64,000 nt of DNA from Candidatus Gastranaerophilales bacterium HUM_9 (GTDB lineage: Bacteria; Cyanobacteriota; Vampirovibrionia; Gastranaerophilales; Gastranaerophilaceae). Shown here piece by piece: positions 18,744 to 61,562 of this stretch; the stretch's first letter is position 1, and each line of letters opens with the position of its first letter. Where the stretch lies: the NCBI GenBank assembly GCA_002103075.1, contig DABG01000018.1:400836-464835 (forward strand). Reading direction: 5' to 3'. A program made the translations under genes and the position numbers. Under the pieces are notes generated by a model. The model made no database searches and was not told where the DNA came from. It was given only the letters and a program-made list of their open reading frames with translations.

Positions 18744-19310
18744 TTAGTTTTTGTAAAATCCTGATGTGTAATAATCAAAACCTTTGAGCTCACCAGATTT
18801 TTTGTAAACAGGTGTAAATGCAACTTTGAATACTCTATCACTGCATTTTTTGTCTGCCAACTCAACAGATTTGTCATAATATCTGTTCACAGCATTAATT
18901 GTTTCAAAAGAGTTTGGGTATCCTGTTCTTTCAATGCTTTCACGCTTTGCTTTTCCGATTGCCTTACCATAGTTTTCGTCAATAAACTTTGCGTCCTTAC
19001 CTGTAATCACACGGATAAATCCCTCACAGCTATTTTTTGCCTTTTTATAAACAGCTCTTATTTTAGGAATATTAAAATAGTCAACATCTCCGCCAACTCT
19101 TTTTCCAGTAGCGTCAATTTGACCATATTTGAATGTGTCAACCAAGTCCATATTGCGTTTTTTTACACGTTTAGAGTTGTTCAAATGTGCTTCAACATAG
19201 TGAAGACATTTTTTCATGTTTTCGTCAGAAACAATACGTCTGCCATCATTCGTATAAAAATACATTTTATACGAGCTATTAAAAGATTGGTTGTCGCCTG
19301 ATATACGCAT
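18744..19310 (-). CDS. Hypothetical lysine-rich protein with MRIS N-terminus
   Basis: A 188-aa ORF beginning 5 nt after the stop of the upstream gene. Its start ATGCGTAT is shared at nucleotide level with the 2081-aa and 602-aa genes. There is no signal peptide. Confidence 0.6.
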   Translation of the reverse strand: MRISGDNQSFNSSYKMYFYTNDGRRIVSDENMKKCLHYVEAHLNNSKRVKKRNMDLVDTFKYGQIDATGKRVGGDVDYFNIPKIRAVYKKAKNSCEGFIRVITGKDAKFIDENYGKAIGKAKRESIERTGYPNSFETINAVNRYYDKSVELADKKCSDRVFKVAFTPVYKKSGELKGFDYYTSGFYKN

Positions 19311-19315
19311 AATTT

Positions 19316-19801
19316 TTATTCGTTATGACCTGTTTGCCAACGGTGGTCGATATCAGCTTTTTTAGCGTTTGCATTCAAGTTTGCTATGAATAAATGATAT
19401 GCCATAACTGTTAAACCAACGGCACCTGCAATAACTTTACCCTTTGTTGAAATAGCTTTTGGTGCTTTTTTAACGACATTTCTTATTGCATCAACACCAA
19501 TTACGCCTACAGCTCCAATTCCGCCATAAGCTAAGCCCTTAAATGTGCCTTTGATGTACTCTCCAGTGGTAACTATTGCTTTTTTAAAGTTTGTATACCC
19601 GTTTTTAAATCTTTGCCATAAAGATTTTTTCTTTTGTGGTTCTTCTGTTGTTTTGTTTTGCACTACGACTTCATCGCTTGCAGGCTCTGTTTTTGTTTCT
19701 GGTTGAACATTTCCTGTAAATGTCGGAGCTTGAGTAACTCTTGATGCGTTACTACGCATTGTGTCAAAAACGTTGTTTTGGGTATTTAATGTTACTGCCA
19801 T
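19316..19801 (-). CDS. Hypothetical membrane protein with MAVTLNT N-terminus
   Basis: Two predicted TM segments (GLAYGGIGAVGVIGVDAI, VIAGAVGLTVMAYHLFIANL). I prefer the ATG at 19801 (AGGTGA 5 nt upstream) over the GTG at 19810 used in the track. Confidence 0.6.
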   Translation of the reverse strand: MAVTLNTQNNVFDTMRSNASRVTQAPTFTGNVQPETKTEPASDEVVVQNKTTEEPQKKKSLWQRFKNGYTNFKKAIVTTGEYIKGTFKGLAYGGIGAVGVIGVDAIRNVVKKAPKAISTKGKVIAGAVGLTVMAYHLFIANLNANAKKADIDHRWQTGHNE

Positions 19802-19942
19802 ATACATCACCTATTTCACTACACACTTACTTAAAAACATGAAACTACAATTATTTGCTAGTTTTTAACAAAATTTTACAATAAATGAAGCAAAATTTTC
19901 TTATATGTTACAATATATTATAAGAAAATTTTAGGAGAAAAG

Positions 19943-20299
19943 ATGAATACTGTAATAATTGTTGGTAGAGTTGGCAAAGATGCAGAAATTAAAGACTACG
20001 AATCAGGAAGATCACGTACAACGTTTTCTTTAGCAGTCAATCGCTGGGATAGCAAAACAGCATCAGAAGTTACTGATTGGTTTAACTGTGAAGTTTGGGA
20101 TATAACCAATGATTTGAGTTCATCAGGCAAAAAATCTCGTGCTAGATTAGCGTATGAATATATCAAAAAAGGACGTCTTGTTGCTGTAGATGGTCGTATT
20201 AGAGCTAATTCTTGGCAAGACCAATCAGGTGAAAATAGATTGTCATATATTATTACAGTTTCAGATTATAGATTATTAGGTTCAAAGAAAGAGTCATAA
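19943..20299 (+). CDS. ssb: Single-stranded DNA-binding protein (short form, no acidic C-terminal tip)
   Basis: OB-fold text VIIVGRVGKDAEIK...TFSLAVNR...TDWFNCEVWD...GRLVAVDGRIRANSW. The protein ends LLGSKKES. Confidence 0.85.
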   Translation: MNTVIIVGRVGKDAEIKDYESGRSRTTFSLAVNRWDSKTASEVTDWFNCEVWDITNDLSSSGKKSRARLAYEYIKKGRLVAVDGRIRANSWQDQSGENRLSYIITVSDYRLLGSKKES

Positions 20300-20300
20300 G

Positions 20301-21614
20301 ATGAAATTATCTAATATTGTGGGAATTATAGCCGATGATTTGACTGGTGCTAATGATACAGCACTTCAATTTAAAAAATGTGTTGCGGAAACAAAAATTT
20401 TGTTAAATCCAACTGTTCCGCCAGTAAATGATTATAATACAGAAGTATGGGCGATTTCGACTGAATCTAGAAATGTCGCTCCCGAAATCGCCCAACAAAA
20501 GATTAAGTCTGCTTTGAAAACACTTAATACTAATCTTAATCTTGAACATTTTTATAAAAAAATAGACTCTACGATAAGAGGAAATATCGCAGTTGAAACT
20601 CTTACTATGTTAGAAGAACTTGATTATGATGTTGCAATAATTATTCCAGCTTTCCCAACTGAGGGTAGAATAACTGTTGGCGGTTATCATTTATCAAAAT
20701 GTGTTCCTATTGGTAGAACTGAAATGGCACGTGACCCGCATTCACCAATCACGGAGTCACACGTTCCAACATTGTTTAAAACTCAGCTTGGTCCAGATAA
20801 GGCGGATTTGGTTGCAACTCTTGATTTAAAAACAATTATGAATGGTGCAGGTCCTATTCTTGTTAAAATAAATGAGCTAGTAAAACAAGGTAAAAAACTT
20901 ATTGTTGCAGATGCTGTGAGCCTTGTAGATATTGAACAAATAGCTCTTGCTATCAATAAATCAAGTTATAAAATTTTGCCTGCGGGAACTGCTTCAACAG
21001 GTCGAGCTCTTGCAAAGCAGTGGCTTGAAGAACAAGATGCCTCAGTAGAATGTGAAAAAATTACTGTACCTAAACTTCCTAAATTGATTGTTTCAGGAAG
21101 TGCAACGCATATAAATTCTACTCAGATTGAACATCTTGAACAAAGTTATGATTATGACAACTTAGTATTTTTATCATTAACTCCTAAAAATATTATTGAT
21201 GGTGTGACAGATGACGTTATTAACCATATTGTTGATAATTTGATGAGAGAAAATACTGTAATTGTTCATTCTTCAAAACTCTTGGAAAATTTTGACGGGT
21301 TCTCTGATGATTCGTTAAAAGAAGAATTGACAAGACCGAAGTTTGCAATCAAGATTACTGATTATCTTGCAGAACTTACAAAACGTGTTCAAGAAAAGAT
21401 AAACATAATTTTGATATTATTGGGTGGTGAAACCTCGTTTAAGTGTTGTAATGCAATTTCTGCAACTGAGTTAACTATGTTAGATGAAGTTGCTCCTGCG
21501 ATTGCACTTTGTCATGATGAACATAATCAGTTGATTATTACAAAGTCTGGGAATTTAGGTACTCCAAAAACATTAATAGATATTTTACATTATATAGAAA
21601 AACATGAAGTATAG
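20301..21614 (+). CDS. Four-carbon acid sugar kinase family protein (DUF1537; OtnK/DtnK/YgbK-like)
   Basis: The N-terminal IIADDLTGANDTALQF signature is present and the length is about 430 aa. It overlaps the adjacent pdxA-family gene. Confidence 0.8.
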   Translation: MKLSNIVGIIADDLTGANDTALQFKKCVAETKILLNPTVPPVNDYNTEVWAISTESRNVAPEIAQQKIKSALKTLNTNLNLEHFYKKIDSTIRGNIAVETLTMLEELDYDVAIIIPAFPTEGRITVGGYHLSKCVPIGRTEMARDPHSPITESHVPTLFKTQLGPDKADLVATLDLKTIMNGAGPILVKINELVKQGKKLIVADAVSLVDIEQIALAINKSSYKILPAGTASTGRALAKQWLEEQDASVECEKITVPKLPKLIVSGSATHINSTQIEHLEQSYDYDNLVFLSLTPKNIIDGVTDDVINHIVDNLMRENTVIVHSSKLLENFDGFSDDSLKEELTRPKFAIKITDYLAELTKRVQEKINIILILLGGETSFKCCNAISATELTMLDEVAPAIALCHDEHNQLIITKSGNLGTPKTLIDILHYIEKHEV

Positions 21615-22527
21615 TAATAAAATAGCAATAACAACAGGTGATATAAACGGTATAGGTACAGAGGTTACGATTAAGGCACTTAATAGTCTTGATATTGACC
21701 CTGAAAAGATTGTGCTTATTACTAATAAAAAATCATTAGAATTGTATCCAAAATTGAATAAGGATTATGAAATTATAGATATACCTTTTGAGGGTGAGGT
21801 TGAGTTTGGAAAACTTACAAAAGCGTCAGGAGAGTTTTCTTTTCAGGCTTTGAAAAAAGCGTGTGAGATTAGACCTAAGTTTATTGTGACAGCACCTATT
21901 TCCAAAGAAGCGTTTTATCTTGCAGGACACAAGTTTAATGGTCAAACAGAGGTGCTTGAACATTACTTGGCAAAAGGCGGACAAAAAGCTGAAATGTTGT
22001 TTGTATCAAATGGGTTTAATGTATTGTTGTTAACAAGACATTGTGCATTAAAAGATATAAAGATATCAGAAGAAATGATAATTGAAAAAGTCGAGCGTTT
22101 ACAAACTTTTTGGAAAAAACATTATAAAAATTCTATTCCAAAATTTGCTTTGTGTTCATTGAACCCACATGCTGGAGAGGGCGGTATATTGGGTGATGAG
22201 GAAGAAAAAATTATTATTCCTGCTATAAACAAATTGAGAGCAAATGGGATTGATATAACCAATCCATTACCGGCAGATACATTGTTTATTGAAGCAGGGC
22301 AAAATTATATTAAGGGTAAAAAGGCTCCGTATGATTGTTATATTGCGATGTATCACGATCAAGGATTAATTCCGATTAAGACTGTTGCGAGTGAAAAAAC
22401 AGTTAATATGACAATTGGATTGGATATAATAAGGACGTCACCTTGTCATGGCACAGCTTTTGATATTGCAGGTAAGAATGTTGCAAACCCACAATCAATG
22501 ATTGAGGCTATTAAACAGGCGTTATAA
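21604..22527 (+). CDS. pdxA: PdxA-family 4-hydroxythreonate-4-phosphate dehydrogenase (PdxA/PdxA2)
   Basis: TGDINGIG, NPHAGEGG, MYHDQGLIP and IRTSPCHGTAFDIAGK motifs are present. Confidence 0.88.
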   Translation: MKYSNKIAITTGDINGIGTEVTIKALNSLDIDPEKIVLITNKKSLELYPKLNKDYEIIDIPFEGEVEFGKLTKASGEFSFQALKKACEIRPKFIVTAPISKEAFYLAGHKFNGQTEVLEHYLAKGGQKAEMLFVSNGFNVLLLTRHCALKDIKISEEMIIEKVERLQTFWKKHYKNSIPKFALCSLNPHAGEGGILGDEEEKIIIPAINKLRANGIDITNPLPADTLFIEAGQNYIKGKKAPYDCYIAMYHDQGLIPIKTVASEKTVNMTIGLDIIRTSPCHGTAFDIAGKNVANPQSMIEAIKQAL

Positions 22528-22540
22528 TAAACATATCAAG

Positions 22541-22747
22541 AATTGTAGGTTGGGGTTTCCACCCCAACAAAATATGTTCAGATGTTCACAGGGATTCCAC
22601 GCTTTCTTTAAAAGATATTTGTTGCACGCTCTGAATGACATACCTAGTGTCATCCAGAGGGAGTGAAACGACCGAAGGATCCCCCTGAACATACAGAATT
22701 GTTGATTTATGGATTACTGCACTTAATATATTGCATACCGTGAGTGG
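22541..22747. repeat. Mosaic extragenic palindromic repeat cluster D
   Basis: Modules in order: aattgtaggTTGGGGTttccACCCCAAcaaaa; ..cagggattccacgc...gcacgctctgaatgac; gtcatccagagggagtgaaacgaccgaaggatccccctgaac; ..ttatggattactgcacttaatatattgcataccg. The cluster abuts the stop codon of the 633-aa gene. Confidence 0.9.
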
Positions 22748-27654: not shown

Positions 27655-27659
27655 AGAAA

Positions 27660-31160: not shown

Positions 31161-34100
31161 ATGAAAATTAATGAGTCTAATTCAATTAAAAAAGTTTCTT
31201 TTCAAGGACATCAACACGAGAAAACCGAGTCAGGGGAAGAGGCTTACAGATTTAACTGCCTTTATGACAAGAACAAATATGATTGTGAAGTCCAGTTTTT
31301 CAAGGTTGGACAAGATAAAAAGAACAATTTCTTCATAGAAAAAGGTTGTAATGGTACTATGGAGCCATTTTATAGCGCAGAAGTTGGCGATCATGGGGTT
31401 CAAGTTGATGCAGATTATGACCTAGACTTACAAAAGAACGAACCATTTGCATATAGATTTAAGTTGAAATCAAAAGACGGTAGCAAAACCGAGTATCCAC
31501 AATCAAACGGGTTCACAATTGACGGTTGTTCAGTTATCACACGTCGTGGAACCTCTGTTACTAAGCAAGGTCCTATGTATTTGACTATCGCTGATACCTT
31601 TAACCCAGGGTATGTTTACGCTGGGTTCAATGATGCTGATACAGGTAAAATTAAAGGTATGGAAACAGCGGACAAACGAAAAGTAGTCGCTGATAAAGTA
31701 CGTAATTCAAACCGTACTTTCTCAAACACTATCGGTGGTACTATGGCAGGTATTGAAGTTAAAGTTCCTGAACTTAGAAAAGCTGGTTTCAAAAGAATTA
31801 TCACTTGTCCATTAAAGGGTGGTGACAACGCATCATCTCACAAATATTGGAACGAAAACAACTTCTTAATGGCAGGTGGAATTGGTAACATAAATAACTA
31901 TAACTCATTGCAACGTACAGCGTTTAAACACGGTATGAACCTTGTTGATGATGGTACGTTTACATCTGAGGGTTTGCAAGGGGTACACTTCCAACGTGCA
32001 ATCAAATGGATGGATCCAGATAACAAACCTGATGAATACTATATGTTCAGAATGTCAGGGCTACAAGATGATAGTCTTGGTTTAGGTGTTGTTCCTGAAA
32101 ACTATGAGAATATGAGATTAAAGGTTGTAAATGGTGTTTCTGATTATGAAAAACAATCAGATGGTCAATATAAAATTGTAAAAAATAAAGATTACAACCC
32201 AAAACAACCTACATATATTCAATTATATGATGATACCATGGTTTCAGACGAACAAAGAGCTGATAAAACTCACGTTATCACACAGTATGACAAAGTTAAT
32301 TCAGACAGTAGTTTGAGTGCTAATACTCACGATGATACGCCTGTACCATACACATTTGAAGCAACAAATCCTTATGAATTGGATAAGAATATCAAGAGTC
32401 TTAATGAAGTGAATAAAATGAGAGGTTCATCTGAAAGAATTGACAAAGATTCACCTGCTGGAGCTATGTTCTTAGGTTCATTATCAAACATTAAGATTGC
32501 ACCTAAAGAAGAGGGCGGATTTGTTTGTTGGGACGCTAACACAGATATGGTTAAGATGAACTACTTCACGTCAAACTATGATGATGAGTTATTGGCATCA
32601 GAAAAAGACCCTGCTAAACGTGCTATTGAAATGGATAAATATAGACGTGCAAATTATCAGGTTCAAGATATGACACTTGCTGCAGGTCGTTATTGGACAA
32701 AAGAAGTTAGAAACACACACAACGAATATGTTGCTAAAACTATCGGTGAAATTTCATCTAACCCAACAAAAGCATTTAACAGAATTGATTCTATTTTGAA
32801 TTCACAAAACCCTGATAAACCAGTTCTTCCAGAAGACGTAAGAGTTTCAAAAGCTGTTGTAGAAAATGTTCTTAATGGTGATTATATAATGCGTGAAAAA
32901 TCAGATAATTATGATGATTTGGTTAATTCTGCAATTATGGACTTGCCACTTGATTCATTAGAATTTGCTAATGATACAGCAGGTGCGTTGTCATCACCTT
33001 ATATTTCAAAGCGTTCTACAGATGAAGAACATCTTGGTCAAACAAGATTTGAGTCTATTAATGACCCAAGTTTCAAGGTTGATAAAAAATATGCAAAAAC
33101 TTTTAATAAGATGAACGATGTTTACACAAAAGACATCAAGGGTTTTGCAGACAAAGTTTTGAACCAAGTTAATGAAAACTCAAAAGAAAAATTATTTGAT
33201 GAAGAGGGTGAAGTTACTGAATACGGACAATATGTAATTCCTCTAGTTGCTGGCGATATTGCAAAATATGCGTTGGTAAAATCATTGATGCCATCAGTTA
33301 AGGCTAAACAAATCGAAGGTGGCGAAATCGCTTATGATTATGACACAATGCGAGAAGAAGGAACACTTAGAAATCTTGGTATCAACGGCGATTCTCAAGA
33401 GGACGAAGCTAATCAGGTTGTTAATAAGATTAGCAAGGGTGTAAACCTTTTGAAATCAAGCGATGTTGATTTTGTATCAAAATCAATTAATAAACGTATC
33501 CAAAATACTAATGCTAACAGTTTTAAGTTGGCAGAGGTTATGGTAGACCGTTCAGGTTTAGGTTTGGACTGGAGATTAGATGCGGCAAAAGACGTTGCAG
33601 ATATGGATTCAGTTAGAAATATGGATCAAACTTTTGACAAGGCTTGGGATAATGTGGTTAAATTCTGGGGTAACTTTGTTGATACAGTTAAGGAAGAAAA
33701 CCCTAATTCTTATCTTGTTGCAGAAATTACTGACGTTGGCGATTTGATTAAGAGCCAACCTGATGATAAATCTGATTTGAAATATAATTCAGAAGAAAAA
33801 TCAATGAACTCATTATTTAATGTTGCAGGTATTACATCTGAGGCAAACTATTCATATTTCTTTGACGGAATTACAAGTATGTTTGCAAAAGATTTTACTA
33901 ACGGTAATGATAATGTTGGTAATAACGATAACGCAAGAGTTGGCAAGTTGGAAGATTCTATCTCTAGATTTGTTAAAATGCCATTGGATTACCAAAGAAA
34001 CTCTTATGTGTTCGCAAGCAATCACGATAAGCCACGTATGATACACTTTATGTCAATGGATATGGGGTTGTATCATTCTGATTTAAAAGTTGGTAAAGAT

Positions 34101-35468
34101 AATGATAGAAAAATCGCATATATGATTACTCATGATAAGATGGATATTCCTAAAAATGAAGAGGATAAAATACTTCATGATCCTGATATGTTCAACAATG
34201 TGAGTGCAAAGGCTGTTGCAAATGGTGCTTTGTTGAGAAACAGTATTGGTGCTATCAATGAACAAATGAAGCAACAAGAACTTAGAAAGATAGATAAATC
34301 TGATAAATCAGAACATGAAAAGAATGTAGAACGAGAAAATACTCATAAGAAATACGATGCGATTTATTCAGCGTTGTCTGGAGCTGTTGCAGACGTAGTA
34401 AATGGCAAATATTATAAGAACGAAGATGAATCAAAGACTAATAAGACACCTGATTCAATCAAGAAAATCAATGAAAAAGACGGTTTTGGTTCAAAACCTA
34501 TTCCTACAGCGTTTGATATTGTGTATGATCAGGCTGTACATTCTAAAAAACTTGATGAATTGTTATCAGGTGATGAAAAAGAAGCATATAAAGATGCTGT
34601 TTATATGAAAGCAACTGAGGTTGGTCGAGCAAAGACAAGAATTATCACAAGATATTTAAGTGCATTGTCAGGTAACCCTACAATTTATGCAGGTGATGAA
34701 GGCTTGGCTATGACAGGGGCTGAGGATAAGTGTCAAAACACATTCTTACAAAACCGTAATGCATTAGATTGGTCGTTGGTTGATAAAGATAGCCCAAATG
34801 CTAATAAAGACGTTCAAAACTTTATGAACGATATGTTTGGAATCACAAGGGTAAGAATGGACGATAACGGTAATAAGATGGAAGCATTGAACAATGGTAC
34901 AATGACAAAACTTGTTACTCAAAATAGATACATTTTTGCCGATAAACATAATGATAACAAGCAATGTCCTGCGGTTATTTATCAAGCAGGTAATGGGGCA
35001 ATGAGTGTGTCTTTATTTAATCCAAACGGTATTACAACTGCTCAAAATGTAAGCCCAGATGATTTACACCCAAATCAATTTACACTAGAGGGCGGTATCA
35101 ACTTGGAACAAGATGTTAAAGGTAGACGTGAAAAGATTAGCTTGACACCTGGAACTGAGTTTAAGAATGCGAATAATCCTGACTATAATTATCGAGTATT
35201 TGAACATGACGGTAATTATTGCATAAAACAGATTGATTCAAATGGTAAGGAATCAGGTATTGAGTTGAATGAAAAGACAGCTCCTGATGGGGTATTGATG
35301 TTGTACCACGTACCTGAGGATATCGCAAACGAACGTAGTGAAATGGCAGAAACAAAGAAACGTGAATATTATAATAAACAACATAATATTATGCCAAACG
35401 GCGGTTATCAAAGTTCTGTAGATGAAGGAGAAACAGGACATAACTTGAATGTAACATCAGAAGAATAA
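31161..35468 (+). CDS. Giant (1435 aa) GH13 alpha-amylase-superfamily protein with a very large insertion
   Basis: GH13 region II GLDWRLDAAKD (Asp807), region III LVAEITD (Glu855) and region IV FASNHDKPR (Asp956) are present, along with the beta1-2 text GGTMAGIEVKVPELRKAGFKRIITCP. There is no signal peptide. The N-terminus is MKINESNS. Confidence 0.8.
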   Translation: MKINESNSIKKVSFQGHQHEKTESGEEAYRFNCLYDKNKYDCEVQFFKVGQDKKNNFFIEKGCNGTMEPFYSAEVGDHGVQVDADYDLDLQKNEPFAYRFKLKSKDGSKTEYPQSNGFTIDGCSVITRRGTSVTKQGPMYLTIADTFNPGYVYAGFNDADTGKIKGMETADKRKVVADKVRNSNRTFSNTIGGTMAGIEVKVPELRKAGFKRIITCPLKGGDNASSHKYWNENNFLMAGGIGNINNYNSLQRTAFKHGMNLVDDGTFTSEGLQGVHFQRAIKWMDPDNKPDEYYMFRMSGLQDDSLGLGVVPENYENMRLKVVNGVSDYEKQSDGQYKIVKNKDYNPKQPTYIQLYDDTMVSDEQRADKTHVITQYDKVNSDSSLSANTHDDTPVPYTFEATNPYELDKNIKSLNEVNKMRGSSERIDKDSPAGAMFLGSLSNIKIAPKEEGGFVCWDANTDMVKMNYFTSNYDDELLASEKDPAKRAIEMDKYRRANYQVQDMTLAAGRYWTKEVRNTHNEYVAKTIGEISSNPTKAFNRIDSILNSQNPDKPVLPEDVRVSKAVVENVLNGDYIMREKSDNYDDLVNSAIMDLPLDSLEFANDTAGALSSPYISKRSTDEEHLGQTRFESINDPSFKVDKKYAKTFNKMNDVYTKDIKGFADKVLNQVNENSKEKLFDEEGEVTEYGQYVIPLVAGDIAKYALVKSLMPSVKAKQIEGGEIAYDYDTMREEGTLRNLGINGDSQEDEANQVVNKISKGVNLLKSSDVDFVSKSINKRIQNTNANSFKLAEVMVDRSGLGLDWRLDAAKDVADMDSVRNMDQTFDKAWDNVVKFWGNFVDTVKEENPNSYLVAEITDVGDLIKSQPDDKSDLKYNSEEKSMNSLFNVAGITSEANYSYFFDGITSMFAKDFTNGNDNVGNNDNARVGKLEDSISRFVKMPLDYQRNSYVFASNHDKPRMIHFMSMDMGLYHSDLKVGKDNDRKIAYMITHDKMDIPKNEEDKILHDPDMFNNVSAKAVANGALLRNSIGAINEQMKQQELRKIDKSDKSEHEKNVERENTHKKYDAIYSALSGAVADVVNGKYYKNEDESKTNKTPDSIKKINEKDGFGSKPIPTAFDIVYDQAVHSKKLDELLSGDEKEAYKDAVYMKATEVGRAKTRIITRYLSALSGNPTIYAGDEGLAMTGAEDKCQNTFLQNRNALDWSLVDKDSPNANKDVQNFMNDMFGITRVRMDDNGNKMEALNNGTMTKLVTQNRYIFADKHNDNKQCPAVIYQAGNGAMSVSLFNPNGITTAQNVSPDDLHPNQFTLEGGINLEQDVKGRREKISLTPGTEFKNANNPDYNYRVFEHDGNYCIKQIDSNGKESGIELNEKTAPDGVLMLYHVPEDIANERSEMAETKKREYYNKQHNIMPNGGYQSSVDEGETGHNLNVTSEE

Positions 35469-40688: not shown

Positions 40689-43600
40689 ATGCGTATAAAT
40701 TCAATTAATTCAACTACTCCCAAATTTAAAAGTGTTAGAGAAGACAGAAATACAACTTCTCAATTAAGTAAAAACAATGATTATTCGTTAACTGAACCAA
40801 ATCAAAGACGAATAAATAAGGCTATTGAGAATTTGGCAAAACAGCGTGGTGAAGAAAATATCAAGTTCTTGTTAAATGTTGGTGAGAATTTAACGTATCA
40901 AACAAATATTCCTGATGCTAAACCTACTAAAAATGAGTGGCGTTCAAAACTAAAAGATGCTACAGAAAAATCTTTGGCAATATCAGATCCTATCTTGAAG
41001 TCTAAATATGAATCTGAAATTTCAAGAGTATTTGACGAACCTAAGAAATTGTCTGATGATGAAAAATCTATTCTTGAACATAAGAAATCAATCATGTCAC
41101 GTGTAGATTTAGATAGTATAAAATCTAATCCAAATGAAAATATTAGAAATTTAGAAAAGAACATGGACTACTTCATATCTTCTACAGAAACTCCAATCAA
41201 GCAAAAAGCCTATGTTATGGAACGTTTAGATTATATGATGAGTCCTGATTATCATATTAATCCTCAGTTAAAAGATAAAAAAACTCAAGTTTTGGCTGAA
41301 ATGATGAACGATATGGTTATTAATACACCAGAATCAAAAGTTCCAAACATGAAAGCTGTAAACCAAAAAACTCACGGTATGTGTGCAGCTATCTCAATCG
41401 CAAGAAAAGCTGTAGCGTATGAAGATAAACCTGATTATGTAGATACATTGATGTCTGAACTTGATGATACAAATAAAGTAATGGTTTACGATAGACACAA
41501 CATTGGTAGTGGAAAACGTGTTCCAGTTGAAAAAACTGCTGTAGATTTTGATTATGCTCAAGATAAAGGTTACAGAATTATTGACGCATCTACTCTTCAA
41601 TGGATGGGTATTGCTGGCATGTACGGTAATAAGAGTGAAAAACTTCACGATTTCTTCGCTTTTGATAAAAATAATTTTGATGCGTTCCACGATTCATTCT
41701 TTATGAAGACTATTAACAAAGATGATTTGAAAACAAAACATTGTTACTTCCAATCTTTAACTAAAGCAAAAGATGAAATCGGTAGTGTTAAAGCTGATAA
41801 AACTCTTAAAAATATGGAAGTTAAATCAAGAAACCATAATAACGAAGAAAGTATAAAATTAATTCAAAAATATAATGATGATACGATGAAAAATATTAAG
41901 GAAATCGTTCCTGATATTTCAAAAGAAGAGCTTCGTGAAGATATAAATAATCTTGCAAAACTTTATGCTCCATCATCAGAAAAATTAGAAAAACATTCTG
42001 AAGATATAAAAGGATATAGTTTTATTCCAAACGAAGAAAAAACTCAAAAAGAGAAAAAAGTAAAAGCATATTTTGTGGATAAATATGCAGAAAGAATTTC
42101 TGATAAAGATTCAAAAGACAATATTTCTAATCTTGTTTCAAACATAGAAACAGTTCATTCATTGGAAAATTCTTTGTCAACTTCAAAACCTTTATCATCA
42201 AAAATTGGTCAAGCGAGAAAGCTATATAATGCTGAATCAGCATACAGAGCAAGTATTGCTACAGGACTTAGAGATGATGATATTTTAACAGACTATCTTA
42301 TCCATTATAATATTCCAGATAGACAAACAAGAATTTCTGACGGTTATCAAACCGTAATTGATAGAATTACTAAAAAAGATGATAAAAAATTATTAAATCA
42401 TTATACAACCGTATTTGGTTTAGAGCCAGATGATAAAGAGGGTGCAATAGAATCATTAAAAGCGGTTAAAAAATCTGTTGACACTATTCAAACAGCTGGT
42501 ATTGATGATTTGTATACAAGAATGGGTATTGGTACAAGAAAATATTTGTTGATGAGTGAAATAAATTCTGTAAAAACTCTTGTTGAAGATGGCGATAAGG
42601 CAGAATTGAAACGTATTTCATCAACAATGGGTATGAAACCTGATAAAAAAGCTGTGACTAAAGAACTTTCTAAAATGGAAGACTCTTTATTGAAATCATC
42701 AGATGAAAAAGTTTATAAACACGTATTTAATAAAATGGGCTACAAAGATGAAGTAATAAACTTTGTTGATGTATATGGAATGTTCGTTGCGAAATTGAAT
42801 GACCAAGATGATCCGATGTCAGCAGCAGCATATTTGCAATCATTTAAAAATACAAATGGATTAGCAGAAGATGCTTCTCCTGAAGAATTAACAAATGCTA
42901 TCAATGGTATCGGACAAACATTTAATATCTATTCTCAAACATTAGAAAATGCAGAAATGTTGTTGAATGTTGCAAATGATGACGGTACAGCTTATTTCAC
43001 AGTTGATGGCCCACAAGTTGTTATGAAAAAAATGGAGAATGAGGGTAAACTTGTTCCTGCAAAAGATATGAGAATGTTACAAACAAGATTTAATAAAATT
43101 GACAAAATTCGTTCTTCTGACGAGTTTTCAAGCAGACAAGGAAAGATTTCTGATCCATCATTATATAAATTGTCTAACTCAGAAAAAGCTGCGGTTAAAC
43201 AAATAAACGGCAAAATAAACATGATGTATTCTGATACAGTAAAAGAATATGAAAACATGTTTAAAACAATAAGAGAACCATTAGAAAAACATATTAGATA
43301 TATTGGTACAAACGAAGGTACTTATTGGGTTGGTTCAGACGGTCACAGTGGTTTAAGCAGTTCTCAACAAGTTAAGATTATTGAACAAATGACAGATAAA
43401 CCATATCAAGCTGTATCAAATATTGAAGGTGCAATTGAGCAAATCAAAAACACAGAGCATTCTGGTGTATCTTCAACAAGTGTATTCAATGACAAACATG
43501 GCTGGCATGCTCAATATATTGCTGACGTAAATGAAGTTGGTAAAGATGGTAGAACTGCAATGTTCCACGATAACACTTGGGGTGCATCTGAACACGAAAA

Positions 43601-46600
43601 TACTTGGGTTGATTCAGAAGGATTAACAAGAACAGATTATTCTGATAATCGTGGTGGTGAATTTGGTTATATCACAAATGATGATTGGAGAAATGGTAAC
43701 TATGTTGACAACTTAACTAGAAAAGCAGGTCATATTACTCCACACGATATTGATAACAAAATGTATAAAAAACTAAGACCAGCAGGAGAAGAATACGATT
43801 TCTCTACAATTTCAGATATTATTGTCCTTGGGGAAAGTAATACTTATAAAGATATTGCTGCATCTATCAAAGATACAATATTTGTTCCTGATTCAGTATT
43901 CTTGCCTACATTGAAAAAAGAAGCTAGTCAAATGACAACAAGGGAAATCCAAAAGGCTATCTTTAAAAATGATTCTGCAGGATTAGGTTATCACGCAAAA
44001 TTTGATAAAATGGATAAACGTATCAAAGGTGATAGCTTGCACGACGGTATCAAAACATTAGAAGATTATAACAAGTTATCTGATAATGACCCGATTAAAA
44101 TAACTTTTGAAAAAGCTGCAATCAAGTTAGCATATAGTGACGCTTCTATGTACAAAGAACTTGGTAAAGCTACTACAATGAAAGAAGTTCAAAAAGTTAA
44201 ACAAGAACAAAGAAAAGAAGCAATTAAAAACTTTGATTATTCATTCGGTAAATCAGAAGAAACTTTGACATATTTAGCAAAAGAACATAGAACTGATATT
44301 GCAAATATTGTTGTAAACGCTTTGAAAAACAATAATATAGATGCAAATAAAGGTATTGATATCGTTAAAAACGTAGTAGTTTTTGAAAACGAAGATGAAA
44401 AAGCTAAATTCACAGGTAGCGTAAAAGATACTATCAAGTTTGTATTAGACAAGACATCAAAACAATTTGATGCAGCTGTAGATGATTCAGAAGATTCAAG
44501 AAAAGCAAAAGCTGAAATAATGACTAGTATGAAAGCTATGTTAGAAGATTCTTTATACTTCAATAAAGAAGATTTGAACGCAAAAGGTTCAAAAATCAGA
44601 GGTATAAGAAACTGGATTGATACTAAGTTTAATCCGAAATCTGACGAAGAATTTGTACAAATTTATAGAAATCTTCAAGATATGCCTGCTAAAGATTTTG
44701 AAAAAGTTAGAGCAGATGTAACTGACAAACAATTGGGTATGTCTGAACAAACAGGATTTGATGTATTGCAAAAATACAATGCGGCAAATGATGAAGCAGA
44801 ATCAACAGTAAAAAATATCTTGTTCTATGAAGAATATACTAAGGACTTGCAAGAAAGTAAGTTGAAAACAACTTATAAGTATAACAAACTTGAACGTAAG
44901 ACAAGAGGTGCTGTTTACGTTGGTGAAAGAACTTTTGATGATTTGTATCGTTCGATGAAGTTTACTTTAAGCAGTGTAACTTATGAAAAAATGTTCAACA
45001 AGTATAAAGATAGAAATATCAAAAAATACGGTGCATTCCCAGCATATCCAAAACTTGATATGAGTAATAACAAAGGTATTCAATCTCAAGTTGATTTGTT
45101 GAACGACAAAGTTAATTCTTTAATGACAGATATTATTCAAAAGAAAAATATTAAACGTGATTATGAAATCTCAGACGAGATGAAGAATTATGTATCACAA
45201 ATGAACCCTGAAATGAAACCAACTGCAACTGAACGTAAGTATATGCAAAAGTTGGCAGGTGAATTTATCACATTGAATATGAATGATGAAAGTATCCCTG
45301 CTTCTACTGAAGCTGCATATAATTTGTTAGATATGGATAGGGATACAACTTATGCAGATTTGAAATCAAATGCAGATGTTATTATCAACGAATTTGAAGC
45401 AATTAAAAAAGCTAATGCAAGCGTTGATTTAGATGAATATACAAAGAATTTGAGCAAGGCATTAGATAATTATACTAATACAATTATTGATGTTGGTATT
45501 CCACCAAAATATCAAAGAAAACTAAAAGAAGATGCTAAAATTTGGCAAACACTTGAGTTTAAACTTGCTACTGATTCAGGTAAACAGTCAAATGACTTGC
45601 AACAATTGAAATCTAAGATAAAGGCAGGTTCAATCAATTATGGTTCTGAAAAGCAACTTAATAGTTTTGAAAAAATTCAAGATATGGTTATTAAAACAAG
45701 CAAGTTGAATAAATCAGATGCTAAAAAGGTTGATGAGTCTGGTTATAAGCCATTAGACATTGCTATGTCTAAGAAAGATGCAGATTTAAAGAAAGCAAGA
45801 GTTGCTGAAAAACAAGCTGAAATCTCAGAAGCAATCGATAGATATGTAAATAAATATATTAAAGAAGATTCTAGAGATAACATAAAAGCAAATATGGCTG
45901 ATTGGGCGAATAAAGAAATTCGTGGTGGAAATCGTCGTAAGGTAACTGAAGACGAAGTTGTTGAAGCTAGAGAAAAATTCGCAGATGATTATTATAAATA
46001 TCATTTGACTAATAACCCAATTGAATTATTGGATAGATACTTGTTATTGACAGCGAAAGATGCAAAAGAAAAATATCCAAATTCAGCAAGTAACGCTGTT
46101 TCTTATGAACGAGTTTTATCAGATGAATTGAGTTTAACAAGATATGTAGAAATTCAAGACGCTCTAATGGAAGCAGTTCATGAGGGTAACCCAGCTCACG
46201 TAAAACATTATTTTGATGATTATACAATTGATGCAGATAATAAAGTGAGCATGAATAGTGATGAAGCAATTAGTCACATGGTTGTAAGTTTGTTGATGGA
46301 AGATAACACTAAGCCGGCTAAGATGTTTGTTGAAAAACTTGGACTTGGTGACAGAGTTATGGATATTGAAACAAAAGTTCTTCATGATGCAAAACCAAAA
46401 AAACAAGTTGATAAATTGGCAAAAACATTGAGATCAATTGGTCAATTCCAATCTACTGCAAATAGTGAGTTTGAGGAATTGATGAATAGAATTACTGATT
46501 CAGATAATCCAGATGCTGAAATTGAAACAATGAAGCAAAATATCTTGAAAAACTTGCGTGGCATGCCAAAGAACAGCAAGGTAGTAAAAGCATATTTTGC

Positions 46601-57386: not shown

Positions 57387-57916
57387 TACGCAGCCACCCT
57401 TTCTTTACCAAGTGCACTTTCTAAACTGATTTTTGCATTTTCAGCCAACCAAGTTGAACGTAAGTCTTGAACAGATGCTTTATTGTTAATATGTTTAGTT
57501 GCCAAAATTTTTGGACCGTTAGCTTCTTCTAAATGTTCAATATTATGGCTATGAAAAACGCTAGAAATTTTGTCTTGTACATTTCTACCCATTTCAGCGA
57601 TAGAGTTTTTAGTAGCTTTCATAGCTGCTATTCCATTGTTGAATGTTTGTTTAACATTGTGAGCAAACTTCACGATTGGTTGAGTGATGCTTGTTTTGAA
57701 GTTGTTCATAGCACCAACTACTGCACTAGCAACCATTTTTATTTTGCTTGGCTTTTGTTCAATCGGTTTAATAGATTGGAACACGTCAGCGAATGGTAAT
57801 ACGCTACCTGTGAATGATTTGCCTTTAAAACTATTATGTTCAAATGGATTTGTAGATGTTTTTTTATTAATACTTAGAGAACCGAATTTTGCCCCTAATA
57901 TAGCCTTGATTTCCAT
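57386..57916 (-). CDS. Hypothetical protein (N-terminal SFKGKSFTG motif)
   Basis: A 176-aa ORF translationally coupled to the downstream 119-aa ORF. There is no signal peptide. Confidence 0.6.
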   Translation of the reverse strand: MEIKAILGAKFGSLSINKKTSTNPFEHNSFKGKSFTGSVLPFADVFQSIKPIEQKPSKIKMVASAVVGAMNNFKTSITQPIVKFAHNVKQTFNNGIAAMKATKNSIAEMGRNVQDKISSVFHSHNIEHLEEANGPKILATKHINNKASVQDLRSTWLAENAKISLESALGKERVAA

Positions 57917-58126
57917 ATATACTACCTCGTTTATGTGATATTTAACACTTCTAGCATAACATTTACAAATAAAAACAAATCATCTATATGGTGTAGATTG
58001 TTTTGTAACCTGATTTTTAAACATTTTGTAAATAAATGTAACGAAAATAACCCGCCGTGAAATTGAGAAAAGTGTATATACTTTATATATATGTAAGCAT
58101 TAAATAAACACGAAAGTGAGAGAGCG

Positions 58127-58294
58127 ATGTCAGTAATTAACACATACGACATAAATGCGAAAGCAAACATAATTTCTGAAGAGTTGAAAAAAGTTGACTC
58201 AGCAGAAAGTGACGAATCTTGCATATTGTATAAGGAAATGCAGCTTATGGCAATGAACAATATGCAAAGATTTAAACTAGGTTTAAAAAAATAA
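58127..58294 (+). CDS. Possible small ORF (55 aa), below the ORF-track threshold
   Basis: MSVINTYDINAKANIISEELKK... is followed by its own plus-strand terminator at 58330..58359. The SD is weak (gagag). Confidence 0.35.
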   Translation: MSVINTYDINAKANIISEELKKVDSAESDESCILYKEMQLMAMNNMQRFKLGLKK

Positions 58295-58329
58295 CTTAAC
58301 TCAACTTAATTCCCACTAACTTAATTTTA

Positions 58330-58359
58330 GCGTCTGATTATTCTCAGTCGCTTTTTTTT
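58330..58359 (+). terminator. Rho-independent terminator (plus strand)
   Basis: Stem gcgtctga/tcagtcgc with one mismatch and loop ttattc, followed by T8. Confidence 0.6.
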
Positions 58360-58371
58360 GCGGATTTTGTT

Positions 58372-58403
58372 CAAAAAAGACGGGTCGAAATTTTCGACCC
58401 GCC
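58372..58403 (-). terminator. Rho-independent terminator of the 104-aa gene (minus strand)
   Basis: Stem cgggtcgaaa/tttcgacccg, with a T-run on the minus strand (A-run 58372..58378 on plus). Confidence 0.75.
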
Positions 58404-58426
58404 TTAAAACTTTTTACGATAAAAAA

Positions 58427-58741
58427 TTAGTTACCATAAACTCTTGTAGTTAGTTTTTTGAAACCGCAAATGTTTTTTACGTGTGTATCATAGTAAGTAA
58501 TATTTGAAATTTTACCGTTTTTAGCAGCAGCATTTACACTGCAATCGCCTAAAGCAACGATACCAAAGTAACTTGTTGCAGTTGCAACACCTCTTTTGCT
58601 TGCAGAACCGTTAGCAAAACCAACACCAGCTTCTGTAGCATCTTTGTATACGAAACCGCAAACACCTTCAGCCATAGCTGCTTGTGCGTTAACAAAACCA
58701 AATGCTGCTAAGATAGCTAATACACCTAACATCTTTTTCAT
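58427..58741 (-). CDS. Small secreted protein, TRL-like family candidate
   Basis: Signal peptide MKKMLGVLAILAAFGFVNAQA, with the mature part containing GDCSVNAAAKNGKISNITYYD. The family assignment is from memory only. Confidence 0.55.
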   Translation of the reverse strand: MKKMLGVLAILAAFGFVNAQAAMAEGVCGFVYKDATEAGVGFANGSASKRGVATATSYFGIVALGDCSVNAAAKNGKISNITYYDTHVKNICGFKKLTTRVYGN

Positions 58742-58914
58742 AATTTTCTCCCTCTTATCTAAATAATGTTAAACATGATAGTTCATAAACGAATATACCA
58801 TTTTAGCTTGTATTTTGTCAATAATTTCAAGTTGATTATTAAGAAATGCTTAATACACTTGGGGGATTGAGAAAATAGTTGTATAATATAATCGTAGTAT
58901 AGAAGGAGAAAATT

Positions 58915-59649
58915 ATGGCAAATCCAATATTGAACGACAACTTTGCTTCAGCACAGGCTGGTGATAGAGTTATTGTAGGTGGAACGATGTCTGTGTCAGG
59001 TACAATCGACAAAGCATTTTTGATGTTCTTATGTGCGTTTATTCCTGCAGCTTATACGTGGCAACAGTTTACGCTAGGTTTTACAGATAAAGTTAGTATG
59101 TTGATGATGATAGGACTTATTGTAGGCTTTGTATCTGCACTGATAGCTTCATTTACTCGTAACAAAATTTTTATGGTGCTGTATGCAGTGTGTGAGGGAT
59201 TATTTTTAGGTGGTATTTCTGCTGTATTTAATCAGGCATACCCTGGAATAGTTCTTCAAGCAGTTACTGCAACATTTGCTGCGTTGTTGTCAATGCTTGG
59301 GTTATATAGATTTAATATAATTAAATGTACAGATAAATTCAGAAGCATTATATATATTTCAACAATATCAATAGCTGTTTTATACTTAATGCAGTGGATT
59401 GCATCATTCTTCCATTATAGCATTCCGTTTATTTTTGGTAACGGTACATTTGGAATTGGTTTTAGTGTTGTAGTTGTTGGTATTGCAGCATTAAACTTGA
59501 TTTTAGACTTTGATTTTATCGAAAAAGGTGTTCAAAACATGTTACCAAAAGATTTTGAATGGTATGGTGCATTTGGACTTATGGTTACGTTGGTTTGGTT
59601 GTACCTAGAAATTCTTAGACTTTTGGCAAAATTAAGAGATAATAATTAA
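58915..59649 (+). CDS. Bax inhibitor-1/YccA-like integral membrane protein
   Basis: A 244-aa ORF with 6-7 predicted TM helices. The MANPILN.. N-terminus is typical of the BaxI_1 family. Confidence 0.7.
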   Translation: MANPILNDNFASAQAGDRVIVGGTMSVSGTIDKAFLMFLCAFIPAAYTWQQFTLGFTDKVSMLMMIGLIVGFVSALIASFTRNKIFMVLYAVCEGLFLGGISAVFNQAYPGIVLQAVTATFAALLSMLGLYRFNIIKCTDKFRSIIYISTISIAVLYLMQWIASFFHYSIPFIFGNGTFGIGFSVVVVGIAALNLILDFDFIEKGVQNMLPKDFEWYGAFGLMVTLVWLYLEILRLLAKLRDNN

Positions 59650-59753
59650 AAGTTTTATTGGGAATTTATTAAAATTAAAAAAATCTGCTTGAAACATAGC
59701 AGATTTTTTGTTGTTGAAATGGCAAAAAAAATTATTAGAAGTGTTATATAAAT

Positions 59754-61562
59754 ATGCGTATCAATCCATTTATTACAACTCCAAATCTTTTGAATCTTCA
59801 ACAAAATAGACAGTATTGTTTTTTTAAACATAATAATTTATCGCCATTAAAACAAGATACTGTTAGTTTTGGTGCGATGAAAAAACAAGAGTTTTCAGGG
59901 ATTGATAGAGTATGTGTAGATAAATTCAAAGCTCCAATTGAGAAATTTAATACAAATGAGGATTTGCAAGATTGGGCAGGTGAAAAACTCCAAACAATTT
60001 TGACAACTGATTATGAAGGGCGTAGAGAAGAAACTCAAATTCAACGAAAAGCGTTGATAAAAGAATGGGGAGATTATTTAACAAAAGAAAATGATGCGTA
60101 TAACAAAACGGCAGGTTTATTGGTGATGTCTGCAATCACAAAGGATTTAGAACCAAATAATGATGAATTGCCACCGTGTTTGAATAAAGGTGTTCTTGCT
60201 GATGTGATGTCAAAAGTTGATAATGGTGAAAATGTAAATATACTAAAAGAGTATAAGACTGGGCTTAGACATCAGTACTTTGATGAAACCAAAACGGTTG
60301 GGACGGGTAAAGAATGGATAGAAATTCCGTCAAAAGAACATGACCCAGAAAATTTTGAAAAGAATGTTGATAAATTAAAAACTTTATCCCACAAAAACTG
60401 GTGTACACATAGTTTTAACGCAGAACCATATCTATCAGAGGGTGATTTTCATATTCTATTAGATAACGGAAAACCAAGACTTGGTGTGAGGTTTTATGAG
60501 GATACAATTGCTGAAATTCAAGGTGTGCAAAATAATAGTCAAATTCCGTTGGAGTATTTTGAAGATGCAAAAGAGCATGTAGAAAAAAATAATTATGAAT
60601 TGGATTATAGAGCGATTGATGAATTTGAGGACGCTGAAATTAAAAAAGAAGAATGTGAAGAAGCAAAAAAAGTACTTCAACCAGCAATAGAAAAAAATGA
60701 TTTTCCTAAAATTTTAGATTATTTTCATATCAAATCAAAAGAGGATAAAGATGGGTTTTATACTATTTCCCATTATGATTTAAAGCATACAGGTCGTGGA
60801 ATTAAGCCTGCTGATTTAGGGGTAAATGAAGATGCAATGTTTACAAAAATAAAACGTATCGAAGGCAAGATGAATTTAGAAGGTTCAAAACTAACGGATA
60901 CAGGAGAATTGGAAAGCATTGGTGGTTATACAACTATCCCAAATTGTGAACTAAAATCTTTAGGTAAAATTAAACACATAAAAGATGGTTTAGATATAAG
61001 TTATTCTCAATTAACAGATTTAGGTGATTTAGAAAAAGTTTATGGAAGTTTTAAGGCAGAAATGTCAGGGTTAAAAAGTTTGGGAAAACTGAAATATATT
61101 AGCGGGCATGCTGATTTTAGAGATTCACAAATAAAAAATTTGGGTGAACTTGAGTATATTGGTGGAAGTGCAAATTTTAATTATTCACCAATTGAGGATT
61201 TAGGAAATCTAAAATTTATTGGTGGCAAAGCTACCTTTAATGATAAAATAAAGAGTTTAAAAAATTTAGAACGAATTGAAGGTAGTGCTGATTTTACTGA
61301 TTCTGTGGTTGAGGATTTGGGGAATTTGAAATACATAGGGTTTAATGCTATTTTTAGTAAAGATGCAACAAAACAGTTAAATTCGATTTTTGCACCGCAT
61401 AATCCGGAGTCATTAAAAAAAGAGCCTGAACAAAAATATAATAAACCGACAGCGAAACGCTTGAAGAATTTGAAGGTTAAATCATTCAGAATAAAAGGTT
61501 CAAAACTAAGAAGAAGTGACTTTTTTAATGTAAAAATTGACGGTCAACTCATAGCTGATTAG
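59754..61562 (+). CDS. Lineage-specific 602-aa protein: PcfJ-like central region plus C-terminal leucine-rich repeats
   Basis: NWCTHSFNAEPYLSEGDFHILLDNGKPRLGVRFYEDTIAEIQGVQNN is PcfJ-like. About eight repeats of 22-23 aa follow, with pattern L..LG.L..IGG.A.F. The N-terminus is MRINPFITT and there is no signal peptide. Confidence 0.7.
   Translation: MRINPFITTPNLLNLQQNRQYCFFKHNNLSPLKQDTVSFGAMKKQEFSGIDRVCVDKFKAPIEKFNTNEDLQDWAGEKLQTILTTDYEGRREETQIQRKALIKEWGDYLTKENDAYNKTAGLLVMSAITKDLEPNNDELPPCLNKGVLADVMSKVDNGENVNILKEYKTGLRHQYFDETKTVGTGKEWIEIPSKEHDPENFEKNVDKLKTLSHKNWCTHSFNAEPYLSEGDFHILLDNGKPRLGVRFYEDTIAEIQGVQNNSQIPLEYFEDAKEHVEKNNYELDYRAIDEFEDAEIKKEECEEAKKVLQPAIEKNDFPKILDYFHIKSKEDKDGFYTISHYDLKHTGRGIKPADLGVNEDAMFTKIKRIEGKMNLEGSKLTDTGELESIGGYTTIPNCELKSLGKIKHIKDGLDISYSQLTDLGDLEKVYGSFKAEMSGLKSLGKLKYISGHADFRDSQIKNLGELEYIGGSANFNYSPIEDLGNLKFIGGKATFNDKIKSLKNLERIEGSADFTDSVVEDLGNLKYIGFNAIFSKDATKQLNSIFAPHNPESLKKEPEQKYNKPTAKRLKNLKVKSFRIKGSKLRRSDFFNVKIDGQLIAD

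Follow-up and report, generated by a model that had tools for sequence, protein, structure and literature searches.

A candidate modular N-terminal peptide tag shared by unrelated proteins of the Gastranaerophilales

Type III secretion systems (T3SSs) of the flagellar type are used for more than flagellar assembly. Reduced flagellar basal bodies serve as exporters in Buchnera, and non-flagellar proteins are exported by Campylobacter (Cia and FlaC) and Yersinia (YplA). We know of no consensus leader in any of these export systems. Chlamydiae, which are intracellular and possess an injectisome, secrete enzymes of glycogen metabolism by T3SS. Short shared peptides also occur elsewhere, as in the cargo peptides of encapsulins and microcompartments, and in the common N-terminal motif of Firmicutes L27 and some phage capsid proteins, which is cut by Prp. 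Here we analyze a 64-kb stretch of the genome of Candidatus Gastranaerophilales bacterium HUM_9 (contig DABG01000018.1, positions 400,836 to 464,835), hereafter called the window. Four lineage-specific proteins of the window have a common type of N-terminus and, judged from sequence comparison, each is one instance of a modular N-terminal peptide tag found throughout the Gastranaerophilales.

Early substrates of the Salmonella flagellum carry a hydrophobic N-terminus and an F-x-x-x-Φ gate-recognition motif, and these signals must be separated by 19-24 residues or more (PMC8983047). In the Gastranaerophilales, complete flagella are found only in a minority; the genes retained by the others include flhB, fliI, and flgG, a subset "postulated to be involved in extracellular secretion" (PMC4040986; bioRxiv 10.64898/2026.04.24.720558). 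The order thus resembles the reduced flagellar exporters in keeping export genes without a complete flagellum, with an orphan fliI under strong constraint, and differs from them in that a consensus tag marks dozens of candidate substrates. The tag is like flagellar export signals in being extremely N-terminal, polar, modeled with low confidence, free of a hydrophobic core, and built of two parts with a downstream Phe element. Its first part resembles the MRINxN start seen in a flagellin-type protein of another phylum, and the late substrates flagellin and FlgL start with MRIN or MRIS. The chlamydial case has a parallel in the GT5 glycogen-synthase-like and GH13-like proteins of this lineage, which carry a non-Sec N-terminal tag and adjoin a T3SS ATPase gene. 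Gastranaerophilales, however, are not known to contact or enter eukaryotic cells. Like the cargo and Prp-cleaved peptides, the tag is a short module on standard cytosolic enzymes and may be read by a single partner, but it has no amphipathic helix, GSL-type cargo motif, or FF|A site, and no gene for a shell, a compartment, or Prp came to light, although none was specifically sought. Our searches of the literature found no description of it.

Anatomy and conservation of the tag

The tag is bipartite. Part A reads M-x-[IV]-[NSQ], in many cases extended by x-[IV]-[NS]. Part B reads [NST]-x-F-(K/R/Q/N/T or nothing)-G and is usually followed by a hydrophobic or aromatic residue. Between them lies a polar spacer of 3-40 residues in which N, S, T, Q, and P abound and D and L are scarce; over the whole segment from Met1 to the F, N, S, P, Q, and T are enriched and D, L, G, and A are depleted. 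MFVNKINGVSNLGFKGYQH is an example of a tag peptide of the lineage. An earlier sequence-only reading of the window took a flagellin-like M-[RK]-I-[NS] as the defining feature. This proved to be only the local form, as residue 2 varies freely (K, R, E, Q, F, N) whereas the F and G of part B hardly vary. The four N-termini of that reading, MKINESNSIK, MRINSINSTT, MRINPFITTP, and MRISGDNQSF, were confirmed exactly, as were the coordinates of their genes. The tags and genes are as follows (aa, amino acids; LRR, leucine-rich repeat; pLDDT, predicted local distance difference test).

31161..31208, plus strand: tag of the 1435-aa GH13-like protein, MKINESNSIKKVSFQG, with part A MKIN and part B SFQG
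31161..35468, plus strand: tagged GH13-like giant of 1435 aa (PF00128 in many homologues; weak PDB match)
40689..40733, plus strand: tag of the 2081-aa protein, MRINSINSTTPKFKS, with FKS as part B
40689..46934, plus strand: tagged lineage-specific giant of 2081 aa with a possible papain-like catalytic pattern (invariant residues in 8 orthologues)
59754..59876, plus strand: tag of the 602-aa LRR-type protein, MRINPF, then the spacer, then DTVSFGA containing F39
59754..61562, plus strand: tagged 602-aa protein with a helical domain, an α/β domain, and LRR-like repeats of about 20 residues (AlphaFold pLDDT 83)
19275..19310, minus strand: tag of the 188-aa protein, MRISGDNQSFNS
18744..19310, minus strand: tagged lineage-specific protein of 188 aa with an unmatched fold (AlphaFold pLDDT 86.6)

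The GH13-like assignment is tentatively supported by the PF00128 matches of homologues and by a weak collinear match to neopullulanase (PDB 2z1k, E = 7e-4), although the window copy itself does not reach the Pfam threshold. Its segments "WRLDAAKD", "LVAEIT", and "FASNHDKPR" resemble, by eye, conserved GH13 regions, and D807, E855, and D956, assigned as catalytic by eye, are among the invariant columns of the family. A papain-like activity of the 2081-aa protein is consistent with the invariance of Q226, C232, H940, N962, W964, and G965 in the 8 orthologues, but the protein has no Pfam or PDB sequence match, nor did its family profile match the PDB. The LRR label of the 602-aa protein, which has 415 homologues, comes from weak Pfam matches (Recep_L, LRR_EndoS) and the repeat region of the AlphaFold model; the model has no significant PDB fold match. 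The 188-aa protein has neither a Pfam match nor a PDB fold match. GNAT-like matches in the fold searches of the LRR and 188-aa models, with E values of about 0.3-1, were disregarded.

The shared N-terminus is real, lineage-specific, and conserved, and, as the earlier reading noted, it lacks Sec, Tat, or transmembrane (TM) character. Neither an h-region nor an RR motif is present in the four N-termini. Within the first 50 residues, the maximal 12-residue hydropathy is -0.43 to 0.36, compared with 2.41 for a signal-peptide control from the same window. Likewise, the maximal 19-residue hydropathy of the four proteins does not exceed 1.31, compared with 2.61 for a membrane protein. The three genes encoding MRI- starts begin with the identical nucleotides ATGCGTAT. 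In all three (18744-19310 on the minus strand, 40689-46934 and 59754-61562 on the plus strand), Arg codon 2 is CGT, whereas the usual Arg codon is AGA (60% vs 18% for CGT); across the loci, CGN is found in MRI- starts and AGA in MRV- starts.

Homologues of all four families keep the module, so the loss of the N-terminus in relatives, which the earlier reading named as a refutation, was not observed. Gastranaerophilales loci fetched around these genes, about 4 Mb in all, carry L-numbers below. The metagenome-assembled genome (MAG) CANNUY01 ("Candidatus Melainabacteria") has copies of the 2081-aa protein (87% identity) and of the 1435-aa protein (99% identity), and their further relatives all come from Gastranaerophilales MAGs. 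In the GH13-like family, 119 full-length homologues read M-[KEFLH]-[IVL]-[NKS]-x(6-10)-[VIL][GAS]-F-[KQ]-G-[YH]-Q-H, and M1, F14, and G16 are invariant in 20 diverse homologues. Among 352 representatives of this family, the tag persists down to about 28% identity; most of 113 remoter full-length representatives (27-41% identity) have a readable M-x-[IVL]…[SNAP]-F-x-G. Orthologues of the 2081-aa protein in L001-L008 read M[KR][ILV][NS]-x(5-8)-F[KR]G-[VRT]RED with invariant M1 and F13, and six remoter orthologues have FKG or FRG where the window copy has FKS. The LRR family reads M-x-[IV]-x-F-x-P-[IV]-N, then has a spacer of about 25-35 residues, then NLAPLxxDT[VI]SF(G|KG)AMKK, with F39 nearly invariant. 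In the 188-aa family, 50 homologues read M[QRN]I[QS]xNxQ[NS]F[NGK][GA][SG]Y, with M1 and F10 invariant.

AlphaFold models built on deep alignments place part B at the edge of the folded body in both the LRR and the 188-aa proteins. Residues 1-38 of the LRR protein have a pLDDT below 50. Residues 1-10 of the 188-aa protein have a mean pLDDT of 52, and F10 stands just before the first long strand (13-20). Thus, part A and the spacer are probably disordered, at least as judged by the low confidence of these models. The codons of the conserved G are unbiased, with all four Gly codons in use, and K, R, Q, N, and T alternate before it; selection therefore acts on the peptide rather than on the mRNA. 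A reading at the RNA level, in which the K-G codons would supply an AAGGA element like that of CsrA sites or the Shine-Dalgarno (SD) sequence, was rejected in view of these unbiased Gly codons and the tolerance of substitutions that break AGG.

Frequency and breadth of the tag

As the sequence-only reading estimated by eye, four matches in the window exceed chance. The window has 46 open reading frames (ORFs) of 100 aa or more, and its own position-specific frequencies, with the four matching proteins included, predict 0.48 matches among them (Poisson p = 0.0015, inflated like any such value here because all patterns were defined after inspecting the data; the effect sizes are 10- to 30-fold). 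We extended the count to 745 protein families from about 3 Mb of related loci, with residues 2-50 shuffled for the expectation. M[KR]I[NS] heads 10 of the 745 families, with 1.1 expected and a maximum of 5 in 500 shuffles. For M.[IV][NSG].[IV][NS], the count is 13 vs 0.42 expected, and for part A with F[KRQN]G it is 7 vs 0.41. Internal Met positions served as another control; judged by these, 9 of 576 families match at the N-terminus vs 0.24 expected. The combination of part A and F[KRQN]G is 17- to 40-fold more frequent at N-termini than at internal Met positions or in shuffles. The control replicon pSOL1 of Clostridium acetobutylicum (31% GC, 152 ORFs) gave 0 matches to every pattern. Among 134 ORFs of other phyla, M[KR]I[NS] is found only in a FliW-like protein (by eye) and in a protein with a typical flagellin N-terminus.

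Across the approximately 4 Mb of related loci, no fewer than 25 unrelated families start with this module. They include the following.

NAD (SDR) epimerase of about 350 aa: PF01370 starts at residue 23, and the tag directly precedes the intact Rossmann GxxGxxG
GT5/GT1 glycogen-synthase-like protein of about 870 aa: with an N-terminal extension
AAA ATPase of about 480 aa: AAA module like Cdc48/p97 (E = 1e-95), with an N-terminal extension
HNH-like proteins: one of them ends in the window ORF 3-557
Ski2-like DEAD/DSHCT helicase
ABC1 kinase-like protein
ADP-ribosyltransferase-like protein: weak match
Small (membrane) proteins: a hydrophobic segment rich in Gly comes after the tag
Runs of small tandem genes

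The tag is an add-on rather than a part of each fold, because it stands before canonical domain starts and because untagged relatives exist: there are untagged SDR paralogues, and the Ski2-like helicase is tagged in L017 and untagged in its L090 orthologue. When a hidden Markov model (HMM) was built from the GH13 tags alone, the SDR N-termini were its best non-self matches (E = 0.002), and most of its top matches were located within the first ~20 residues. Several domain types are effector-like, namely the LRR, the papain-like pattern, HNH, and the weak ADP-ribosyltransferase match.

The tagged AAA ATPase (L042 14859-16325 and orthologues) is encoded downstream of the GH13-like gene. It is a single-ring protein with an uncharacterised N-domain of ~220 residues, and its module matches the eukaryotic and archaeal Cdc48/p97/VAT proteins. 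In L206, a tandem array at 17883-19685 consists of four consecutive small genes (93-181 aa, no Pfam match), each starting with M[KQ][IV]Q…[ST/N]FG; it lies 5 kb downstream of flgK-flgL.

Three further proteins of the window may belong to the tagged set.

57806..57916, minus strand: probable tag of a 176-aa protein, MEIKAILGAKFGS…NSFKGKSFTG, with part A and F[KRQN]G within 40 residues at the level of its family
19316..19810, minus strand: protein of 164 aa, encoded immediately upstream of the 188-aa gene; possible tag …QAPTFTG (weak assignment)
3..557, plus strand: C-terminal part of an HNH-like protein of 447 aa; its tagged N-terminus, MRIFNNINS…AVRFGSS, falls just beyond the window

The 176-aa protein has no Pfam match, and its tag is partly kept in the sole related protein (L085). 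The 164-aa protein has a C-terminal hydrophobic segment with a maximal 19-residue hydropathy of 1.66 at residue 126. The gene of the 447-aa protein is complete in the same-species contig L244 (8618-9961), and its HNH_5 matches are weak. Paralogues of this HNH-like protein adjoin flhB in L017 and fliI in L096.

Flagellar export genes and possible readers of the tag

In a large clade whose GH13-like proteins start with MF[IV]NKI, the tagged GH13-like gene and a fliI directly upstream of it form a conserved pair, and the other side of fliI varies (at least 13 contexts). In some loci, tagged SDR, GT5, and AAA genes belong to the same cluster as the fliI-GH13 pair. The fliI-like gene encodes a genuine T3SS ATPase (EscN 374 bits, FliI 369 bits, F1-β 197 bits). 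As a stand-alone gene (L030-L164, e.g. L042 4366-5712), it is 88-94% identical across the compared species, whose GH13-like proteins are 35-43% identical to that of the window. It has 304 relatives among species-representative genomes; the best 80 of these are all at least 87% identical, none is from the window's clade, and CANNUY01, the MAG of the window species, is not among them. The stand-alone gene sits in many non-flagellar contexts.

Other components of the export apparatus were also found. At 13 loci, flhB is followed by a sigma-factor-like gene (by eye), and the NPTH autocleavage motif is intact in 8 of 9 flhB copies. In L017, a locus of the "MEIN/MKIN" clade to which the window belongs, flhB with an intact NPTH abuts the tagged HNH-like gene and is 5 kb from the GH13-like gene. 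Genes for flhA, fliR, fliN, fliE, and a fliH-like protein are present in other loci. One locus, L140 (5855-14408), combines flhA, two small genes, fliI, and a gene starting with MRIINSIQK, with a csrA/fliW-like pair (by eye) on the opposite strand 3 kb beyond. Detection of fliW was limited to about 13 Gastranaerophilales genomes, without a flagellin gene in its vicinity.

In 14 loci, a σ28-like site, TAAA-N15-GCCGAAA, precedes the GH13-like gene by about 56 nt. Near-perfect σ28-type promoters, CTAAAGTTT-N11-GCCGATAT, lie 9-53 nt upstream of the following lineage-specific genes without known function.

L067 2252-4150, minus strand
L070 1860-2849, minus strand
L099 4113-4514, minus strand
L111 5803-8082, plus strand

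These σ28-type promoters suggest a FliA regulon reaching past the flagellar genes. No σ28 site was found in the window. A promoter word, ATTTGTAA, common to the upstream regions of the tagged window genes was rejected, as its 12 occurrences compare with 12.2 expected.

We tentatively propose that the tag is a targeting signal for a flagellar-type T3SS core. It would be an address label read by one shared machine, most likely the export core with the FliI ATPase and the FlhB/FlhA gate. In this order the core is strongly constrained even in members whose flagella are incomplete. The tagged proteins would be cargo of the core that does not belong to the flagellum. They would contact the export gate or a cytoplasmic adaptor through the hydrophobic extreme N-terminus and the F-x-G element, and the chain, once unfolded, would be passed into the channel by FliI. 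Candidate destinations are the periplasm, the cell surface, the medium, and another cell. As in flagellar and T3SS signals, the tag lies within the first 20-40 residues at low pLDDT and without a hydrophobic core. Its composition (N, S, P, Q, and T up; D and L down) resembles that reported for type III secretion signals.

A number of observations weigh against this proposal. The flagellated relatives L056, L077, L189, and L206 carry flgF/G/A/I/H/N/K/L, with fliJ, fliK, flgD, and flgE read by position. Their own axial proteins FlgE, FlgF, FlgG, FlgK, and FlgL have ordinary N-termini without the tag, which is therefore not a generic flagellar signal; no flagellin gene of the lineage was found around fliW/csrA or flgK/flgL, or by motif in the loci. 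Part B is F-x-G-Φ and not F-x-x-x-Φ, and it can lie about 10 residues from the N-terminus, as in the GH13-like and SDR proteins (range, 9-39), so that the tag does not follow the early-substrate rule of Salmonella. Known type III secretion signals are, to our knowledge, not conserved in sequence, unlike the tag, which is conserved across unrelated proteins. Many tagged proteins depend on NAD, ATP, or nucleotide sugars (SDR, GT5, Cdc48-like AAA, Ski2-like helicase, ABC1 kinase-like). These nucleotide-dependent enzymes would lack substrates outside cells and fit poorly with simple release into the gut lumen; only a cytoplasm, either the producer's own or that of a target cell, would be a sensible place for them. 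The tagged set also includes small membrane proteins. The fliI-GH13 adjacency was inherited as a single synteny block and does not represent many independent events, and it is missing in the window's own clade. Furthermore, Pfam searches of ORFs of at least 100 aa found no flagellar, secretion, or T3SS genes in the window, and same-species contigs hold no T3SS or export-apparatus genes within 10 kb beyond either window end. The earlier suggestion of export by a flagellar-type system is supported in part, by the circumstantial linkage of fliI upstream of the GH13-like gene and of flhB beside a tagged gene in L017, and meets its difficulty in the untagged axial proteins, the lack of apparatus genes in the window and the 10 kb on either side, and the cytosolic-type enzymes.

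Three other flagellar likenesses were rejected. Tag peptides do not match the rod motif PF00460 (Flg_bb_rod) at E <=10, and the GH13-tag HMM gave a true rod protein a domain E of only 11. A 92-aa ORF with a tag-like start (L206 8447-8725) was not confirmed as FlgM by Pfam. The likeness of "MFVNKINGVSN" to a class IB chaperone-binding motif fits one subfamily only and was not used.

Retention of the tagged proteins inside the cell is a serious, if rather unlikely, alternative to their export. The tag would dock enzymes and small membrane proteins to a common partner or to each other, for example by β-strand pairing of F-x-G, or would hand them to one common regulator, for instance an unfoldase or a protease. 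Most tagged proteins with recognizable domains are cytosolic-type, nucleotide-using enzymes, as expected here, and the small proteins with a Gly-rich hydrophobic segment could anchor the assemblies. A sequence-conserved motif suits a specific partner better than it suits a classical type III secretion signal, and a Cdc48-like unfoldase gene lies within the tagged cluster. However, no candidate receptor has been identified, and the pairing with fliI, the proximity of flhB, and the σ28-like promoter are left unexplained, as are the strong lineage-specificity and the LRR-, HNH-, ADP-ribosyltransferase-, and protease-like members. Improbable, in our view, is a different leader route, by which the tag would be a propeptide cut by a dedicated protease in the manner of Prp and L27, or a signal for an unrecognized non-Sec transporter. 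The tag is short, N-terminal, and common to unrelated proteins. Its last residue, G, is small, and a conserved hydrophobic or aromatic residue comes next, as at a processing site; part A and the spacer, being of low confidence, are probably accessible. The tag shares its N-terminal position with Sec, Tat, lipoprotein, type IV pilin, and double-glycine leaders, and its G after K or R recalls the [KR]-G prepilin sites. Compared by eye, however, it matches none of these leader classes, as it has no hydrophobic core, no twin arginine, and no GG or GA at -2/-1. The sequences after F-K-G are polar (YQHEK, VREDRN, AMKKQE), without the ~20-residue hydrophobic helix of type IV (class III) pilins, and only some small tagged proteins have a Gly-rich hydrophobic stretch a few residues after part B. 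In place of the Gly of a double-glycine leader, the -2 position is K, R, Q, N, T, S, or E or is absent, and no LSxxELxxIxGG-type pattern precedes it. No protease or transporter gene stands consistently beside the tagged genes.

The tag might also have no common function and reflect a low-GC N-terminal composition (K, N, I), a start feature at the RNA level, or independent structural needs. At the 33% GC of the window, AT-rich codons favor starts with K, N, and I. Every K-G codon pair includes AAGG, which resembles an SD or CsrA element. The patterns are post hoc, and the place of F10 before the first long strand in the 188-aa model would suit a structural need. This explanation is largely refuted, and we regard it as very improbable. 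Shuffling of residues 2-50 leaves 10- to 30-fold fewer matches, and the 31%-GC control has none. F and G are kept across synonymous codons and across K/R/Q/N/T changes that destroy AAGG. The tag precedes the canonical domain starts of unrelated folds, is mostly of low confidence in the two models, and is kept where overall identity has fallen to ~28%.

Export by the flagellar-type core also has a more far-reaching form, which we consider distinctly unlikely. A relic flagellar type III apparatus (FliI, FlhB, FlhA, and others) would have turned into a general export or injection system with an explicit consensus leader, M-x-I/V-N … S/T-F-x-G, and would deliver eukaryote-like enzymes into other cells. 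From the tagged share of families in the sample (roughly 2-4%), such a system would have an estimated several dozen substrates per genome. If the cargo is exported, its eukaryote-like or nucleotide-dependent members (Cdc48-like AAA, Ski2-like helicase, ABC1 kinase-like, GT5/GH13, LRR, HNH, protease) would be sensible only if delivered into another cell.

Genomic setting and meaning for the lineage

Among the window ORFs of at least 100 aa, Pfam identified the housekeeping genes mutL, recO, infC, luxS, asd, dapB, ssb, pdxA, a glmU-like gene, dnaJ, dut, and others, and lineage-specific genes are scattered among them. The tagged proteins had been said to include the three largest of the window; they include only two. 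The third-largest ORF (6929-10789, plus strand) encodes a 1286-aa UvrD-like protein with helicase domains from near residue 630. It starts with MIINKIS, a match to part A, and has a possible part B, LSFNS, at about residue 35, which is not kept in the L002 orthologue.

A 609-aa protein (12019-13848, minus strand) has no Pfam match. Only its first ~42-69 residues (MGMAA[ST]QAR[YL]L…) are common to proteins at L026 16571-17374, L100 3365-4522, L116 5307-6476, and L129 7842-9011, apart from its last ~58 residues, which are also common to the L026 protein. Three of these four genes lie 0.1-3.5 kb from a fliI-like gene. The constant ends and variable middle of these proteins are reminiscent of flagellar filament or axial proteins.

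The Gastranaerophilales are widespread, uncultured gut relatives of cyanobacteria whose proteome is largely unannotated. One simple tag on dozens of unrelated proteins allows the candidate substrates of a single machine to be listed from sequence. If the tag is intracellular, it would still define a new docking or regulatory system. If its reader is the retained flagellar export core, the persistence of highly conserved fliI and flhB in non-motile members would be accounted for, and the tag would be a rare T3SS-type signal legible as a consensus, of use for prediction and engineering. If the proteins are injected into other cells, a common lineage of the human gut would have a contact-dependent, host- or microbe-directed lifestyle.

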